Positions 17,735 to 63,290 of a DNA stretch of 64,000 bases are shown here, in pieces. Every line of letters starts with the position of its first letter. Positions within the stretch are counted from its first letter, which is position 1. The notes beneath the pieces were generated by a model. It saw only the letters and a list, made by a program, of their open reading frames with translations. It was not told the DNA's origin and made no database searches. Position numbers and translations under genes: made by a program. This stretch comes from an uncultured Verrucomicrobiae bacterium (GTDB lineage Bacteria; Verrucomicrobiota; Verrucomicrobiia; Opitutales; JABDGR01): assembly GCA_963765205.1 (NCBI GenBank), contig CAVXVB010000011.1, positions 96,001 to 160,000 of the forward strand, given 5' to 3'.

Positions 17735-19552
17735 ATGCCAGAACACGATGCCCCCCACCCCGCGGATGCCGCGGACGAACTTTACGAAGGTCATGAATCC
17801 GCCGATGCCCCCGCGCGCGAGCGCCCGGCCCCGGCCAGCACCGGGCTGTCGCCCGAGGACCAGATGCGCCAGCGCCCGGACGAACCGGACCCGGAGCTGA
17901 TCCCCACTGGCGAACTGCGCGACGAGGCCCGCCTGCGCGCCAAAAAATCCCGCCCGCTGCTCAAACGCATCATTGATACTTTTCGCGGCGAGGAAAACCG
18001 CGCCTACCGCGAGCTGATCATCAACGCTGAGCCGCTCGAAAAGCGCGTTGCGCTGCTGGTGGACGGCGTGCTCGAAAAATATGAAGTCGAGCGCAAGGGC
18101 GAAAACCGCCTCGTCAGCGCCGTCTTCAAAGGCCGCATCCAGAACCTCGAAGCCGGCCTCAAAGCTGCGTTCGTGGACATCGGCCTGCCCAAAAACGCCT
18201 TCCTGCATTATTGGGACATTCTCCCCGCCGCCAACGACAGCGCCGTCGAAATCGTCCGCGAAAACCAGTCCGAGGAACAACGCCGCCGCGCGGAGAAAAT
18301 CTCGCTCAAGGACATCCCGCGCCTTTACCCAATCGGCACCGACATCGTGGTGCAGATCACCAAGACGCAAATCGGCACCAAAGGCCCGCGCACGACGACC
18401 AACATCGCCCTGCCCGGCCGCTTCGTCGTGCTCATGCCCTTCTCGGGCGGCTGCGGCATCTCGCGCAAAATCGAGGACCGCCGCGAGCGCGAACGCCTCA
18501 AAAAAGTGCTGCGCGACCTGCAGATTCCCGAAGGCATGGGTGTCATCATCCGCACCGCCGGCGAAGGCAAGAAGACGCGCTACTTTGTGCGCGACTTGTA
18601 TATGCTGCTCAAGTGCTGGGAGGAGATGCAGGAAAAGATGAAGTCCCCCAAGCCCGTCATGCTCTACCAGGAGCCGGACATCATCGAGCGCACCATCCGC
18701 GACTTCCTGACCGAGGACATTGACCGCGTGCTGGTGGACAACGACAAGGACTACGAGCTGATGCTCAAGCTGGTCGGCGAAATCTCGAAGAACTCGATGA
18801 AGAAAATCCAGCGCTACCGCGAAAGCGTGCCCATCTTCGAGCGCTACAACATTGAGCGGCAAATCGAACAGACCTTCCAACGCCGCGTGCCGCTGCCCAG
18901 CGGCGGCGAAATCGTCATCGAGGAGACCGAGGCGCTCGTGGCCATTGACGTGAACACGGGCGGCCATAAAGGCTCGAAGGACGCGGGCAACTTTATCACC
19001 CAGGCGAATCTCGAGGCCGCGAGCGAGGCCGCGCGGCAAATCCGCCTGCGCAACATCGGCGGCCTGATCATCCTGGACTTCATTGACATGAAGCGCCCGC
19101 GCGACCGGCAGGCCGTGTATAACCGGATGCGCGAGGAAATGGAAAAGGACAAGGCCAAGAGCCACGTCCTGCCCATCTCGGCCCTTGGCATCATGCAGAT
19201 GTCCCGCCAGCGCCACGAGCAGTCCATGACCTCGGGCATTTACACCGGCTGCCCGTATTGCCACGGGCGCGGCATCGTGAAAAGCCCGCGCTCGATGAGC
19301 GTCGAGATTCAGCGGCGCCTGCTCTCGCATGTGCGCCGGCTGCGCACCCGTTCCGAAAACCAGGGCCGCGAGCTGCGCTTCCGCATCCTCCTGCACCCGG
19401 CCAATCTCGAGCGCCTGCGCACGGAGGACGAACAACACCTGCTCGACTTCGAGCAGGCCTACCACGTCAACCTCGCCTTCCGCGCCGACCCCTCCTACCA
19501 CGTCGAAAACTTCAAGCTGCTCGACGCGGACACGGGGGCGGAGTTGCGGTGA
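17735..19552 (+). CDS. Rne/Rng family ribonuclease
   Basis: [59 protein letters not shown]. Confidence 0.95.
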
Positions 19553-57914: not shown

Positions 57915-58080
57915 GGGTGAGGAAAATTAAGGGCAGGCTAACTAACGATACATTATCCAATGATTACGGATTGAACAGTCAATTATTGGATGGCCCAAAA
58001 ACGTGTCTTTGGCCCGGCGAAAAATAGCTCAACTCCGCGCTTTGCTCGCGCCCGACAACTCTATTATATTGCCGACGCTC

Positions 58081-59505
58081 ATGGAATCCATCGCCAATGT
58101 TCTGGCCTCGCGCTACGCCTCCGGGGCCATGCGCGCCATCTGGTCGCCGCGCGGCCGCATTTTGCTCGAACGCGAATTCTGGATTGCGGTGCTCAAGGCC
58201 CAGCGCGACCTTGGCCTGCCCATTCCGCCGGAAGCCATCGCCGCCTACGAGCGCGTCAAAGAACAGATTGACCTCGACTCCATCCGCCGGCGCGAGCGCA
58301 CCCTGCGCCACGACGTGAAAGCGCGCATTGACGAATTCTGCGCCCTCGCCGGCTTCGAGCACATCCACAAAGGGCTGACCTCGCGTGACCTGACGGAGAG
58401 CGTCGAGGCGCTGCAAATTTACCGGGGGCTGGAACTGGCGCGGCTGAAGGCCGTGGCCGCGCTCGTCGCCCTGAGCCGCCGGGCCGGCGAAAACAAAAAC
58501 GTGGTGCTGGCCGCGCGCACACACAACGCCGCGGCGCAATTGACCACGGTGGGCAAGCGCCTGGCGATGTTTGGCGAAGAGCTGCTGCTCGCGCTTGAGG
58601 CCCTGGACCAGTTGATCGAGCGTTTTCCCGTGCGCGGCTTGAAAGGCGCAGTCGGGACCCAGCTCGACCAGTTGACGCTGTTTCGCGGTGACATGGGCAA
58701 AGTCATTGAACTCGAGGTGCGCGTGCTGACCCACCTGGGCATCCGGCGCACGCTGATGGCGCCCGGCCAGGTTTACCCGCGCAGCCTCGATTTCGCCGTC
58801 ATCAGCGCGCTTTACCAACTCGGCGCCGGCCCGGCGAGTTTTGCCAAGACGCTGCGCTTGATGGCCGGCAGCGAATTGGCGGGCGAAGGCTTTGCGCCCG
58901 GGCAGGTCGGTTCCTCGGCCATGCCCCACAAAATGAACGCGCGCAGTTGCGAGCGGCTCAACGGCCTGCACGTGGTGCTGCGCGGCTACGTGACGATGGC
59001 CGAAGGGCTGGCGGGCGACCAATGGAACGAAGGCGACGTGTCGTGCTCGGTCGTGCGGCGCGTCATGCTGCCCGATGCTTTTTTCGCCCTCGATGGCTTG
59101 TTGGAAACGATGCTGACCATCCTCGCGCACATGGAAATCAACGCCACAGTGATTGAGCGCGAAGTGCGCCGCTACCTGCCGTTCCTGGCCACCACCACGA
59201 TTTTGATGGAAGCCGTCAAGACCGGCGTGGGCCGCGAGACGGCGCACGAAATCATCAAGGAACACGCGGTTGCCGCCGGGCGCAGCCTGCGTGCGGGCAA
59301 GACCCTCGAAAACGACCTCTTTCAGCGCCTGGCCGCCGACCCGCGGCTGGGGCTGGATGCCACGACGCTCGAACGCATCGCGCGCGACACCCGCATCCAT
59401 CCCGGCGCGGCGGCCGCACAGGTGGACTGGCTCCTGCGCACGGTGCTGCCTTGGTGCGAACGCTTCCCCGCCGCCGCCGATTTGAAGCCCGAGCCGATTT
59501 TGTGA
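58081..59505 (+). CDS. purB: Adenylosuccinate lyase
   Basis: LASRYAS, RHDVKA, HKGLTSRD, ARTH, GSSAMPHKMN. Confidence 0.93.
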   Translation: MESIANVLASRYASGAMRAIWSPRGRILLEREFWIAVLKAQRDLGLPIPPEAIAAYERVKEQIDLDSIRRRERTLRHDVKARIDEFCALAGFEHIHKGLTSRDLTESVEALQIYRGLELARLKAVAALVALSRRAGENKNVVLAARTHNAAAQLTTVGKRLAMFGEELLLALEALDQLIERFPVRGLKGAVGTQLDQLTLFRGDMGKVIELEVRVLTHLGIRRTLMAPGQVYPRSLDFAVISALYQLGAGPASFAKTLRLMAGSELAGEGFAPGQVGSSAMPHKMNARSCERLNGLHVVLRGYVTMAEGLAGDQWNEGDVSCSVVRRVMLPDAFFALDGLLETMLTILAHMEINATVIEREVRRYLPFLATTTILMEAVKTGVGRETAHEIIKEHAVAAGRSLRAGKTLENDLFQRLAADPRLGLDATTLERIARDTRIHPGAAAAQVDWLLRTVLPWCERFPAAADLKPEPIL

Positions 59506-59510
59506 AACAC

Positions 59511-59650
59511 AAGGGGCAGAGGGGCAGAGGGACAGAGGGACAAAGGGACAAAGGCAATGGAAGAAATATGCCGCACACCGGGTTAATTATTCGCAAAAAT
59601 TCCTCATTCCTTTGTCCCTCTGTGCCTTTGTCCCTTTGCCCCTCCGCTTT
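59511..59650. repeat. Element with inverted 8-mer arms (AGGGRCAR)n...(YTGTCCCT)n
   Basis: Five left units after the purB stop; right arm 59609-59650. Confidence 0.9.
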
Positions 59651-59709: not shown

Positions 59710-60969
59710 ATGGCCGAAGAACTCACTGGAAACCTCCTTGTCGCCCAACACGGCAGCCTGACGGCTGCCCTCAACGCCAGCGTGGCGGGCGTTGTTACCG
59801 AAGCGCTCAACCACGGCGAAATCGAGGAAATCTATGGCGCCCTGCGGGGCGTGCAGGGTCTGCTCCAGGAGGAGATTATAGATTTGGCTGAAGAGTCGCA
59901 GCAGACCATTCGCGGCCTGCGCCACACCCCCGGCGCGGCGCTGGGCACCACCCGCTACCAAGTGACTAAGGAACAGGATATCGAGCGCCTGGTGCAGGTC
60001 TGCGAAGCCCACAATGTGCGATATTTTCTGAATGTCGGCGATCTGGAGGCGATGGCGGTCGCCGCCAAGGTGCATGACATGGCGGTCGCCAGAGGCTATG
60101 CCTTGCGGGTCATCGGCATTCCCAAATCCTTTGCCAATACCCTCGGGGTGACGGACCATTGCCCCGGCTATGGCAGCGCAGCCAAGTTTGTCGCCACTGT
60201 GGTGCGCGAATTGACGATCGAGCACGAGAGCGCCAGCAACCACGATTTTGTTTCCATCCTCGAAGTCGGCGGGCGCAACTCCGGCTGGATTGCCGCGAGC
60301 GCGGCGCTCGCCAAACGCAAGAACCAACTCGACGATCCACCGCATCTGCTCGTGCTGCCGGAGGTGCCCTTCAATCCCGAGCGCTTCACTGAAGCCGTCC
60401 AGGCCACGCTCAAGCGCCAGCGCTTCTGCCTCGTGGTCGTTGGCGAAGGCATTGTGGACACGAACGGCAATTATGTCGGCGCGGGCAACGCCAAGGACGC
60501 CTATGGGCAACCCACCTTCGGCCACGCGGGCGAGTATTTGCGCTTGTTGCTGGAACAGCAACTCGGCGTGCGCGCGCGGGCGGCCAAGCTCGGCCTCCTC
60601 CAGCGCGTGGCGGCCCACTGCGGCTCGCAGACGGACAACGACGAAGCCTACGCCTGCGGCCAGGCGGCCGTGCGCGCGGCGGTCAACGGCGAATCCGGCA
60701 AGATGGTCATCCTCCTGCGCGGCGACGGCGACCATTACACCTGCGAAACTGGTTTGGCGAATTTCGCGGATGTCACCACTGGCCCGAAGCCCTTCCCGCC
60801 GACTTGGATCAACGACGACGGCCTGAGCCTGAACTTCCAATATACCAAGTATGCGCAGCCGCTCATCCAAGGCGAAGTGAAGACGCCCTTCGAGAACGGC
60901 GTGCCCAAGTTCGTCTCCCTGATCCGCTCGCAAGTGGCGCGCCGACTCGAGAGCTATGTCCTCGAGTAA
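59710..60969 (+). CDS. Phosphofructokinase-family (PfkA/PPi-PFK fold) protein with degenerate active site
   Basis: PFK scaffold (TPGAALGT.RY, TDHCPGYGSAAK, LPEVPF, VVVGEG), but with QHGSL, GDLEA, PKSFANT and EVGGR where GGP, GGNDS, PKTIDND and EVMGR are expected. Confidence 0.85.
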   Translation: MAEELTGNLLVAQHGSLTAALNASVAGVVTEALNHGEIEEIYGALRGVQGLLQEEIIDLAEESQQTIRGLRHTPGAALGTTRYQVTKEQDIERLVQVCEAHNVRYFLNVGDLEAMAVAAKVHDMAVARGYALRVIGIPKSFANTLGVTDHCPGYGSAAKFVATVVRELTIEHESASNHDFVSILEVGGRNSGWIAASAALAKRKNQLDDPPHLLVLPEVPFNPERFTEAVQATLKRQRFCLVVVGEGIVDTNGNYVGAGNAKDAYGQPTFGHAGEYLRLLLEQQLGVRARAAKLGLLQRVAAHCGSQTDNDEAYACGQAAVRAAVNGESGKMVILLRGDGDHYTCETGLANFADVTTGPKPFPPTWINDDGLSLNFQYTKYAQPLIQGEVKTPFENGVPKFVSLIRSQVARRLESYVLE

Positions 60970-61029
60970 ATTTCTCCTCGCGAATTTCACGGGATGAAAA
61001 AATCTGTGGTATCCGGGGGGCGGAGGAGG

Positions 61030-62251
61030 TTAGGGGTGGGCGGTGGAGTTTATGCCCGGCCCGATCAAATCGCGCAACGTGACGGCGGCATGAAACTCCC
61101 GGCCGTCGCGCTCAAGGGTCAAATCGTATTGAGTGCCGGCGGGTTTCTGCCAGAAATAGACAGTGGCAGGACTGGCTCCGCGCGCGCGCCAGCCCGTGAC
61201 GTTTTGATCCCCAATGCGCCGCAGCACGTCGCCGTCCCGGATGCCGGCTTCATACGCTGGTGTGCCGGGCAGCACATGCGCGATCAGCGGGTTGCTGTTC
61301 AAGTCCTTGGGCAGGAAAACGGCGCCGAGACGGTTGTGGTTGTAGGCTTGCGCGGGGGAGGGATCGGGGCGCGCGTAGATGACGCCCCAGCGGCCATCCA
61401 CGATCAAGTTCAACCGGCTCAGGCCATACAGGCCGACAGTGGCGGCAAAGGCTTCATCGCGCATGACCATTTTTTCCTCGGAAATGCTGCCGCTGATGGG
61501 AACGTTGGTGAGTTTCAACGGACCGAGGTCGAATTCATCCGCCCAGCAGACCTCCCTGATATCGAGGCCCTCGCTCGGTGAATAATAACCGACCACGGTG
61601 GCGGGTGCCTGCGGGTGCGCTGCGCGCCAGGCACGCCATTGCGCGGGCGCCAGGGTCACGCCGCCCTGGTCGCCCGTGTCCACCAGGACGTCCTCGATCG
61701 CGGCCGCCGGTGTCTTTGATGGTAAAACCCAAAACCGCATTTCCCTTCGCAATCGGGAGTGCGTTCCATGAATTCATGTCCGCAGGCAGTGCGGAGATGA
61801 ACTCGACCCGCTGTTGATTCACCGCGAAGGAAAGCAGGCTGTCGCGCAGCCATTGCCAGGCCAGCAAGCCGTCCTCATCGGGCGTCACACCGGCGGGAAC
61901 ATCGAGAACGAGGAACTGACCTTGGAAATCGGCCCCGAGCAGTTGAATACGGCAAGGCTCGGTCAGGCCGCCTGTAACGGTGCCCGGAGGGGCTTTTTCC
62001 GCAGGAGGCGGCTCGGACACCTGGAGACCTAGCCCTTGCGCGACCGGGCGAAAGAGCACGCTGGTCTCCGAGCCGGTATCGAACACCAGGTCCACCGGAT
62101 GCCCGTTCACTTGGGCGGTCACGCGCAGGCGGTTTTCAGCAACCTGCAAATTGTTGCCCGTGACGACGAAGTGCGGGCTGGTCTGGCAACCACCGAGGGC
62201 GAAGGCCAGAACGGGCCCCAGCAAGATCCGGCACACGGTGGAACGGGTCAT
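61030..62251 (-). CDS. Lipoprotein with tandem retropepsin-like aspartyl protease domains plus PDZ, one frameshift near 61700
   Basis: Lipobox LGGC; LVFDTGS in one frame; VLVDTGD and PDZ (V.PGTPAYEAGIRDGDVL) in the next frame. Confidence 0.8.
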
Positions 62252-62282
62252 TCTGGCACTGAAAGGATTATTACCCCGGTCT

Positions 62283-63290
62283 TCAAGCCAGGATGCTGAT
62301 TTTTCCTGACGGAGTTTTGCTGAAGGCGTGGACTTGTTTTTGGTCCGGGTCAAAATGGCGGACGATGATGCGCTGCTGGTTCATTTGCAGGTGCGTGAAG
62401 CCATAGACTTTGGCGGAGTAGGGGCCGCGCTCCGGGTGTTGAATGTCATAGAGGTCGGCGCCGCCCGCGCCGGAGCCAACGAACGAGGTTGGATGGTTGG
62501 CGAATTCCAAGTGCTGCAAATCATGGTCATGGCCGAAGAAGTAAAACTGCACCTGGTGTTTTTTGAAGATCGGCTCCCAGTCGGCGATGAGCTCGGCGTC
62601 GTCGCCGTGGTGGCCGTTGCTGTAGAGGGGGTGGTGGCCCATGACGATGAGGTAGGGCGTGGTGCGCGGCTTTTTCAACTCGGCCACCAGCCATTTTAGT
62701 TGCGTGGCTTTTTCCTCCGCCGTGAGGGAGGCGACGGAGTTGTGGTAATCGCTGTCGAGCATCAGTAGCGTGGCGAGGGGCTTTTTCTCGGGCAAGTCGA
62801 GGCGATACCATTTTGCGGGCAGGGTCCAGCGGGTGCCCGGCTGGGCTTTGGCGTAGGCCAGCTCGGCCTTCAATTTGTCCACCGGTTAATCGTCGTAATC
62901 ATGGTTGCCGAGGATGGCCCAGCACGGGCCGGGAAACGCGGCGGCGGGATAAATGTTTTCAAAGTCGTTTTGCCAACGCGGGCAGCCGGTCCCGCCTTTG
63001 AACGGGCCGTAAAAATTGTCCCCGAGCAGAAAAAGGCCATCGGGTTTGAGCTTCTGGGCGGCGGCATAGCCCTGCATCCCTTTGGCAACCGCCAGCTGGT
63101 TGACCCGGGTCTTGTCGTAGCCCCAGTCGCCAATCATCAGGTAATGGAGATCATCGGCGGCCAAGTCCGCAGGCGCGGGTGGGGCGTCCGCGCCCAGCCC
63201 GCGCGCCCGCGTGCCGGCGGCCAAGGCCGCGCTATAAAAAAACGATTGCTTGAGGAAACGGCGACGGGTGATGGGCGCGGAAAGGCTCAT
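62283..63290 (-). CDS. Tat-exported metallophosphoesterase (purple acid phosphatase type), interrupted by in-frame TAA at 62886-62888
   Basis: TRRRFLK, GDWG, GDNFY, GNHDY, GHHP, GHDH. Both ORF-track pieces are in the same frame. Confidence 0.85.

Follow-up and report, generated by a model that had tools for sequence, protein, structure and literature searches.

Non-catalytic modules of phosphofructokinase (PFK) are already known from eukaryotes. The plant PFP alpha subunit is a PFK homologue described as non-catalytic, and it is paired with a paralogous catalytic subunit. In the regulatory C-terminal half of eukaryotic PFK, by the account given in PMC12203962, the active site has turned into a fructose-bisphosphate site. 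The same account names Asp127 as the general base of PFK, gives GGDD and PKTIDXD as the signatures of pyrophosphate (PPi) use and binding, and places the Lys of PKTIDXD next to the 1-phosphate of bound fructose-1,6-bisphosphate (FBP). In Bacillus subtilis and Staphylococcus aureus, PFK is described as moonlighting in the RNA degradosome, where it is bound to RNase Y (PMC5289998). Within the order Opitutales, a PPi-dependent PFK (PPi-PFK) has been reported in small-genome members, in a section that carries no comment on a second, altered copy (PMC12306168), and for one isolate of the order, Table S3 of PMC13274419 gives proteomic values for a protein of 420 aa annotated as 6-phosphofructokinase.

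We analyzed a stretch of 64,000 nucleotides from an uncultured Opitutales bacterium (the window), in which an ORF at 59710-60969 on the plus strand (ATG at 59710, TAA at 60969) encodes a 419-aa PFK without a stop or frameshift. The product scores 429.9 bits against the NCBIfam model PRK14072 (NF010675), for which the curated cut-off is 273. Among solved structures, the nearest to it are two PPi-PFKs, 3K2Q from Marinobacter and 3HNO from Nitrosospira. An AlphaFold model (pLDDT 89.3) predicts the two-Rossmann PFK fold, with a TM score of 0.89 and an rmsd of 1.9 to 3HNO. Four active-site motifs have the canonical forms QSGGP, GGNDS, PKT[IV]DND, and MGR in Opitutales, and all four are canonical in 168 of 231 aligned relatives (duplicates included). 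As the initial annotation had described, all four are changed here within an intact, full-length ORF. The donor-binding loop QSGGP is replaced by QHGSL (residues 13-17, 59746..59760), whose His and Ser occur, within our family sample, in genus g1 only; GGNDS is replaced by GDLEA (residues 110-114, 60037..60051); PKTIDND is replaced by PKSFANT (residues 138-144, 60121..60141), with the equivalents of Asp127 and Asp129 gone and the Lys and Asn retained; and MGR is replaced by GGR (residues 187-189, 60268..60276), with the Arg retained. Each of these lies on the plus strand.

Ala142 of the protein aligns with E. coli Asp128 in the file numbering of PDB 1PFK, which we take to correspond to Asp127 when, as is customary, the initiator Met is not counted. 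Hence the general base expected of an active PPi-PFK (EC 2.7.1.90) is an Ala in this protein. The GGDD-type motif, which is GGND in the PRK14072 subfamily, reads GDLE and has lost the PPi-signature Asp, and in PKTIDXD the Lys is kept (K139, invariant in 30 family sequences) with the Thr and both Asp gone. The Gly111 to Asp change (G111D), which recurs in 10 of 16 degenerate lineages, would place an acid in the donor-phosphate site. Judged from sequence, the 419-aa protein is a PRK14072 member by descent, and its motifs would not identify it as an active PPi-PFK; it is predicted to be catalytically dead, and PFK activity has very probably been lost in genus g1. The broader statement that every catalytic motif had been rewritten applies to the four motifs but does not extend to the whole active site, in which R82, K139, N143, R189, E246, R290, and R299 are intact. 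R82 (the Arg72 equivalent, 59953..59955, plus strand) is invariant across 30 family sequences, and the retained sugar-phosphate residues E246, D263, G266, R290, Q298, and R299 are encoded within 60445..60606 on the same strand. Contigs from public runs match 60024-60174 and 59874-60093 with no differences and 60205-61100 with one, although these runs do not count as independent support, since they may be the source study. Promoter and terminator scans gave results at chance level.

The genome has one other PFK, a PRK06555 enzyme with intact motifs and about 22% identity to the 419-aa protein. A Pfam PFK search of the family genomes recovered these same two genes and no third. A canonical paralogue of the same subfamily, which had been expected elsewhere in the genome, was found neither here nor in 10 family genomes with the Pfam PFK model (one of the 10 is 50% complete and gave no match). 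The GC3 of the PFK gene is 0.80, versus 0.83 for purB and 0.86 for the intact PRK06555 gene. The purB gene (adenylosuccinate lyase; 58003..59505, plus strand, start codon uncertain) is a conserved upstream neighbour, located upstream of the PRK14072 gene at 88 of 144 Opitutales loci (duplicates included). Because the gene lies behind purB, as many canonical copies do, it is a positional orthologue. We conclude that the gene at 59710-60969 is the single-copy orthologue and not a spare paralogue.

We also noted several features around the gene. Between purB and the PFK gene are inverted arrays of an 8-bp unit (59511-59556 and 59609-59644), and this unit has about 100 blastn matches genome-wide, including long tandem arrays on contig C7. 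Two adjoining ORFs on the minus strand (62283-63290) both match a calcineurin-like phosphoesterase and look like one split gene, and overlapping aspartyl-protease and PDZ ORFs at 61030-62353 look split as well.

The closest matches to the 419-aa protein are labelled Opitutales. A clade at 78-98% identity is followed by a gap, and then by canonical copies at about 60%. The same substitutions recur across this clade: where the motif is covered, all 32 database proteins and all 8 other family genomes carry GGR and have lost the Asp129 equivalent. Asp127 is also gone in 23 of the 32 proteins and in 6 of 9 family genomes. Basal family members (9 of the 32 database proteins and 3 of the 9 genomes) retain Asp127 and QSGG, and on the tree the loss within the family was therefore stepwise. 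The gene is under purifying selection, with a dN/dS of 0.06-0.19 over 21 family genome pairs, versus 0.05-0.17 for the intact PRK06555 gene over 20 of the same pairs (Nei-Gojobori method, with high dS; one of the 21 PRK06555 pairs was saturated). In the 0.8-0.9 Mb genomes of the largest genus of a small-genome family, whose copies have lost about 12 of 13 key residues, dN/dS was 0.05-0.10 over 15 pairs. These two checks, a clade with shared substitutions and purifying selection, both favour the pseudoenzyme reading of the initial annotation, which we regard as likely.

The changes within the family are unevenly placed. On a 30-sequence family tree, with a mean of 1.6 changes per site, we counted 40 changes at 11 donor, Mg, and base positions versus 1 at 11 sugar-phosphate positions, and 5 at 19 positions of an acidic patch (see below); the three sets were picked after viewing the alignments, and their resampling values (0.004, 0.003, and 0.001) are descriptive. 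A neofunctionalised enzyme, with an active site rebuilt for another substrate or donor, would fit some of these data: R82, K139, R189, E246, and R299 are invariant in the family, G187 is fixed, H14 is fixed in full-length g1-type sequences, basal members retain Asp127, and milder copies in Opitutaceae retain most catalytic residues. However, positions 112, 113, 141, 142, and 144 underwent 5-8 changes each and are relaxed, not fixed for a new chemistry, and other lineages have lost 10-13 of the 13 key residues in differing ways and retained the gene. We consider this explanation improbable.

We surveyed the distribution of both genes in 301 Opitutales genomes of at least 85% completeness. The PRK14072 gene is present in 295 of them, nearly always as a single copy, and 0.7-1.0 Mb genomes are among those that have it; a sample of the phylum yielded it in just 69 of 121 genomes. 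In the family of 0.7-1.0 Mb genomes, all 17 carry the gene at 30-35% identity (in one, it is split over two contigs). PRK06555 is present in 223 of the 301 genomes, and 58 of the 78 negatives were derived by elimination. Both genes occur in 221 genomes, PRK14072 only in 74, PRK06555 only in 2, and neither in 4. The 2 of 223 PRK06555 holders in which the PRK14072 gene is missing are both 87-89% complete.

The 13 key residues were read in 176 genomes, 4 of them outside the PRK06555 panel. All 63 copies from genomes without PRK06555 were canonical and none was degenerate (one copy is partial, and 63 of the 74 such genomes are covered). Among 109 copies from genomes with PRK06555, 52 were canonical, 1 had one change, and 56 had two or more, up to 13; this group was enriched on purpose for low scorers, and 56 of 109, from a non-random sample, is no frequency. 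When we tested degeneration against PRK06555 in phylogenetically paired comparisons, no outcome ran counter to the association, and the informative pairs were too few for significance.

Degenerate copies were found in 18 of the 38 families examined. With the motif columns removed and six long-branch families left out, a tree of 114 rows requires at least 7 state changes; in four families, canonical and degenerate copies are intermingled on its starred branches. AU tests reject joining the family of g1 with the Opitutaceae G111D group (p 0.0004), with genus g81 (p 0.0002), and with the f16 copies (p 0.00008); they do not reject a shared origin with genus g13 (p 0.55) or with the f13 degenerate pair (p 0.28). 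On the evidence of these trees, active-site loss has at least four separate origins. This repeated, order-wide pattern goes beyond what a single sequence could have shown in the initial annotation. The milder Opitutaceae G111D copies keep most catalytic residues, and 5 of 5 tested co-occur with PRK06555. They may be active, and are consistent with an early stage in this loss series. Two contigs of one Ca. Didemnitutus record set (L055 and L066) each have a G111D copy, by duplication or from a mixed bin. In family f19 (L114, L288, and L289; genomes of 0.8-1.4 Mb), a PRK14072 copy on a long branch has GGNGS, with an ATP-type Gly, and PRK06555 is found alongside; a switch of phosphate donor instead of a loss is possible there.

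What the degenerate copies retain is a patch near the N terminus. On average, each of the 13 active-site positions survives in 2.9 of 16 strongly degenerate lineages, each of the 176 well-conserved positions in 10.5, and each of the 18 patch positions in 14.5. The patch comprises G7 N8, EALN, IEE.Y, and DLA.ESQQ..R (residues 7-8, 31-42, and 58-68). The first half of its acidic part (EALNH..IEEIY; residues 31-42, 59800..59835, plus strand) is conserved, and the second half (DLAEESQQ..R; residues 58-68, 59881..59913, plus strand) aligns with residues 52-59 of E. coli PFK in file numbering, which we take to be the effector-site face. The patch was defined from the same alignments, and its statistics are descriptive. 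In 100 canonical representatives that do not have the patch, many of these positions are free to vary, and Q64 falls outside the three commonest residues at its site. We took a census of 135 full-length representatives of 50% clusters plus 2 references, a clustering that favours divergent sequences. At least 11 patch matches were found in 23 degenerate and 3 canonical sequences, and the remainder comprised 105 canonical sequences and 6 that carry at least three changes. Limisphaerales, the sister order, have a sister gene with a related acidic patch, and the best 80 of 154 matches there are all canonical. Degenerate PFKs with a Limisphaerales-like patch were seen in P0137, P0226, P0248, and L427, and the pattern may reach beyond Opitutales.

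The protein is also predicted to form a homodimer. The two-copy model scored 0.86, versus 0.00 for the best of 3 controls, with runs that agree in at least 90% of contacts and a pLDDT of at least 88. Among proteins solved as one-chain pairs, 20 of 30 attain this homodimer mark, as against 1 of 23 solved as single chains; the pass may reflect likeness to the solved 3K2Q and 3HNO. Predicted dimer contacts are kept by 10.0 of the 16 degenerate lineages on average. The named predicted interface (residues 73-83, 159-177, 290-306, and 383-401) excludes the patch, with unnamed residues uncertain; a two-copy model cannot show a tetramer contact.

The initial annotation had suggested, as one of two options, a regulatory subunit comparable to plant PFP alpha, which in this genome would mean a hetero-oligomer with the intact PRK06555 PPi-PFK. 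Indeed, all 56 degenerate copies in the genomes tested co-occur with PRK06555, and the motifs of the second PFK are intact in all 8 family genomes that have one. The need for one active PFK explains this co-occurrence more simply, however, and the proposal did not hold up on other counts: the same-subfamily canonical copy is lacking, the two PFKs are about 22% identical, and the patch is conserved equally in 62 genomes without PRK06555 and in 52 with it, on which ground we rejected the patch as a PRK06555 interface. We therefore regard a hetero-oligomer as unlikely.

Slow decay of a redundant, functionless gene is largely refuted and less credible still. It would account for degeneration being seen solely beside a second PFK, and for the raised dN/dS in genus g13 (0.14-0.32), but purifying selection on the gene equals that on the active PFK, loss is concentrated in the active site, and the gene persists in every genome of the 0.7-1.0 Mb family and in all but two PRK06555 holders. 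The source genome is incomplete (92%), but a sequencing or assembly artefact is refuted, as the substitutions are common to dozens of independent assemblies in a stepwise pattern.

We propose that the single-copy PRK14072 PPi-PFK of Opitutales has two jobs: (i) catalysis, the phosphorylation of fructose-6-phosphate (F6P), which would be transferable to the distant PRK06555 PPi-PFK; and (ii) a non-catalytic job, which would need no catalysis and would retain the gene. Where PRK06555 exists, the donor, Mg, and base residues would decay, and in this genome PRK06555 would carry the flux. For the second job, the folded dimer would present its acidic N-terminal patch to something conserved order-wide. 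We put the probability that the protein is a pseudoenzyme kept for such an order-wide non-catalytic job at roughly 70%. This proposal connects the motif loss, single copy, selection, co-occurrence, and patch conservation that we observed with a predicted fold and dimer; from these we infer the loss of activity, and also a binding role for the patch, which we consider probable.

In the family of g1, the protein may well bind FBP or F6P without turnover, and it may couple that binding to the second job. FBP binding without turnover is plausible there: the acidic base has been lost, constraint persists on the basic residues that contact the 1- and 6-phosphates, the Lys that PMC12203962 sets beside the 1-phosphate is kept, and by a weak alignment the regulatory half of yeast PFK lacks the same two Asp. 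As the order-wide job it is excluded, however, because R82 and K139 persist in just 2 of the 16 degenerate lineages. The earlier suggestion of a metabolite sensor thus remains plausible within this family, where the sugar-phosphate residues are nearly invariant, but it does not carry over to the other lineages, which lost those residues. As to the ligand of the patch, the odds are about even that it is another cell component. A second dimer of the same protein, giving a scaffold, is a doubtful candidate, and so is the basic helix at the N terminus of RNase E/G, which would give a degradosome-like complex.

We searched for partners among neighbouring genes and among scaffold nucleases. PurB was rejected: among the 45 strongly degenerate loci that have sufficient flank, its gene is upstream in just 9, and 5 of 5 small genomes gave no match over the cut-off. 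No shared neighbour of degenerate copies was found among 92 ORFs scanned. PNPase lies near degenerate loci twice, and RNase PH and RNase III once each, which may be chance. In one 1.3 Mb genome (G028; L116:821-2945), the genes that adjoin the degenerate PFK include one for an AAA ATPase and one resembling a type III secretion stator gene. RNase Y was likewise rejected: a search of 4 small Opitutales genomes keeping the PFK gene found it in none (it was present in 1 of 5 genomes). RNase E/G was present in 5 of 5 and 38 of 41 genomes, and also in 10 of 10 other Verrucomicrobiota genomes checked. Of the scaffold nucleases, only RNase E/G appears to fit the distribution of the PFK gene, which we treat as a lead and not as a result.

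In the window, the candidate RNase E/G gene (17735..19552, plus strand) is unlinked to the PFK gene, and its product has an N-terminal extension with a basic and an amphipathic helix. In Opitutales, the basic helix of this extension comes ahead of the amphipathic helix; a simple pattern captures it in 28 of 32 untruncated copies, and by eye the remaining 4 are similar. In three Limisphaerales-type copies the extension is long and of another kind. After one further locus had been dropped because of faulty parsing, five other Verrucomicrobiota copies appear to begin at the amphipathic helix, which is common to all Verrucomicrobiota copies checked and may target the membrane. The extension and the PFK patch correlate only loosely, across two orders, and RNA or membrane could equally be what the basic helix binds. 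Yeast PFK reportedly binds RNA (PMC12980061). In its fullest form, our proposal would give the PFK of Opitutales a structural place, close to indispensable, in a conserved complex, which may be an RNase E/G degradosome with docking via the basic helix of the nuclease; a moonlighting enzyme would have become a pseudoenzyme many times and by degrees, with the family of g1 still reading FBP. We offer this fuller version tentatively, as a possibility we do not favour.

Whatever the patch binds, catalysis appears to have been dropped and the gene kept several times, and the surviving surface points at a second job. A handful of residues thereby opens a hidden moonlighting function to direct testing, and the copies with 1 to 13 lost active-site residues form a natural series for studying the origin of a pseudoenzyme. 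Degenerate genes are annotated as 6-phosphofructokinase, and metabolic reconstructions of Opitutales may therefore credit the wrong gene.

The 419-aa protein shares with PRK14072 (NF010675) PPi-PFKs its length, its fold (TM 0.88-0.89), an HMM score over the cut-off, and the purB-side position of canonical Opitutales copies. It differs from them in that the base, the Asp129 equivalent, the PPi-signature Asp, and the Met are gone, and in its acidic patch, which is unconserved in other PRK14072 members. Like the degradosome PFK of B. subtilis and S. aureus, it is a bacterial PFK with a non-catalytic protein-binding role, putative in this case; unlike that protein, which is an active ATP-PFK on RNase Y, it is predicted to be inactive. 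In the second half of the yeast PFK beta subunit, PATLSNNV aligns to PKSFANTL, with the same two Asp gone (3O8O chain B 512-582; weak local score). The eukaryotic regulatory half is fused in tandem to a catalytic half, whereas the Opitutales protein is a single 419-aa module, and no fused or longer form scored among 770 longer candidates in one weak search of 735-2095-residue proteins. P0175 has a PPi-PFK fused to adenylate kinase. Plant PFP alpha has a close catalytic paralogue, whereas here there is only the 22%-identical PRK06555 copy. In the open-access literature searched, a scope that leaves subscription papers outside, we found no report of a stand-alone bacterial non-catalytic PFK or of the Opitutales pattern. 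More broadly, the active site of this core gene has been lost again and again, and yet the gene is almost never missing. By analogy, the 419-aa PFK would work most like the non-catalytic PFK modules of eukaryotes, yet it has no close catalytic copy as a fusion or pairing partner.
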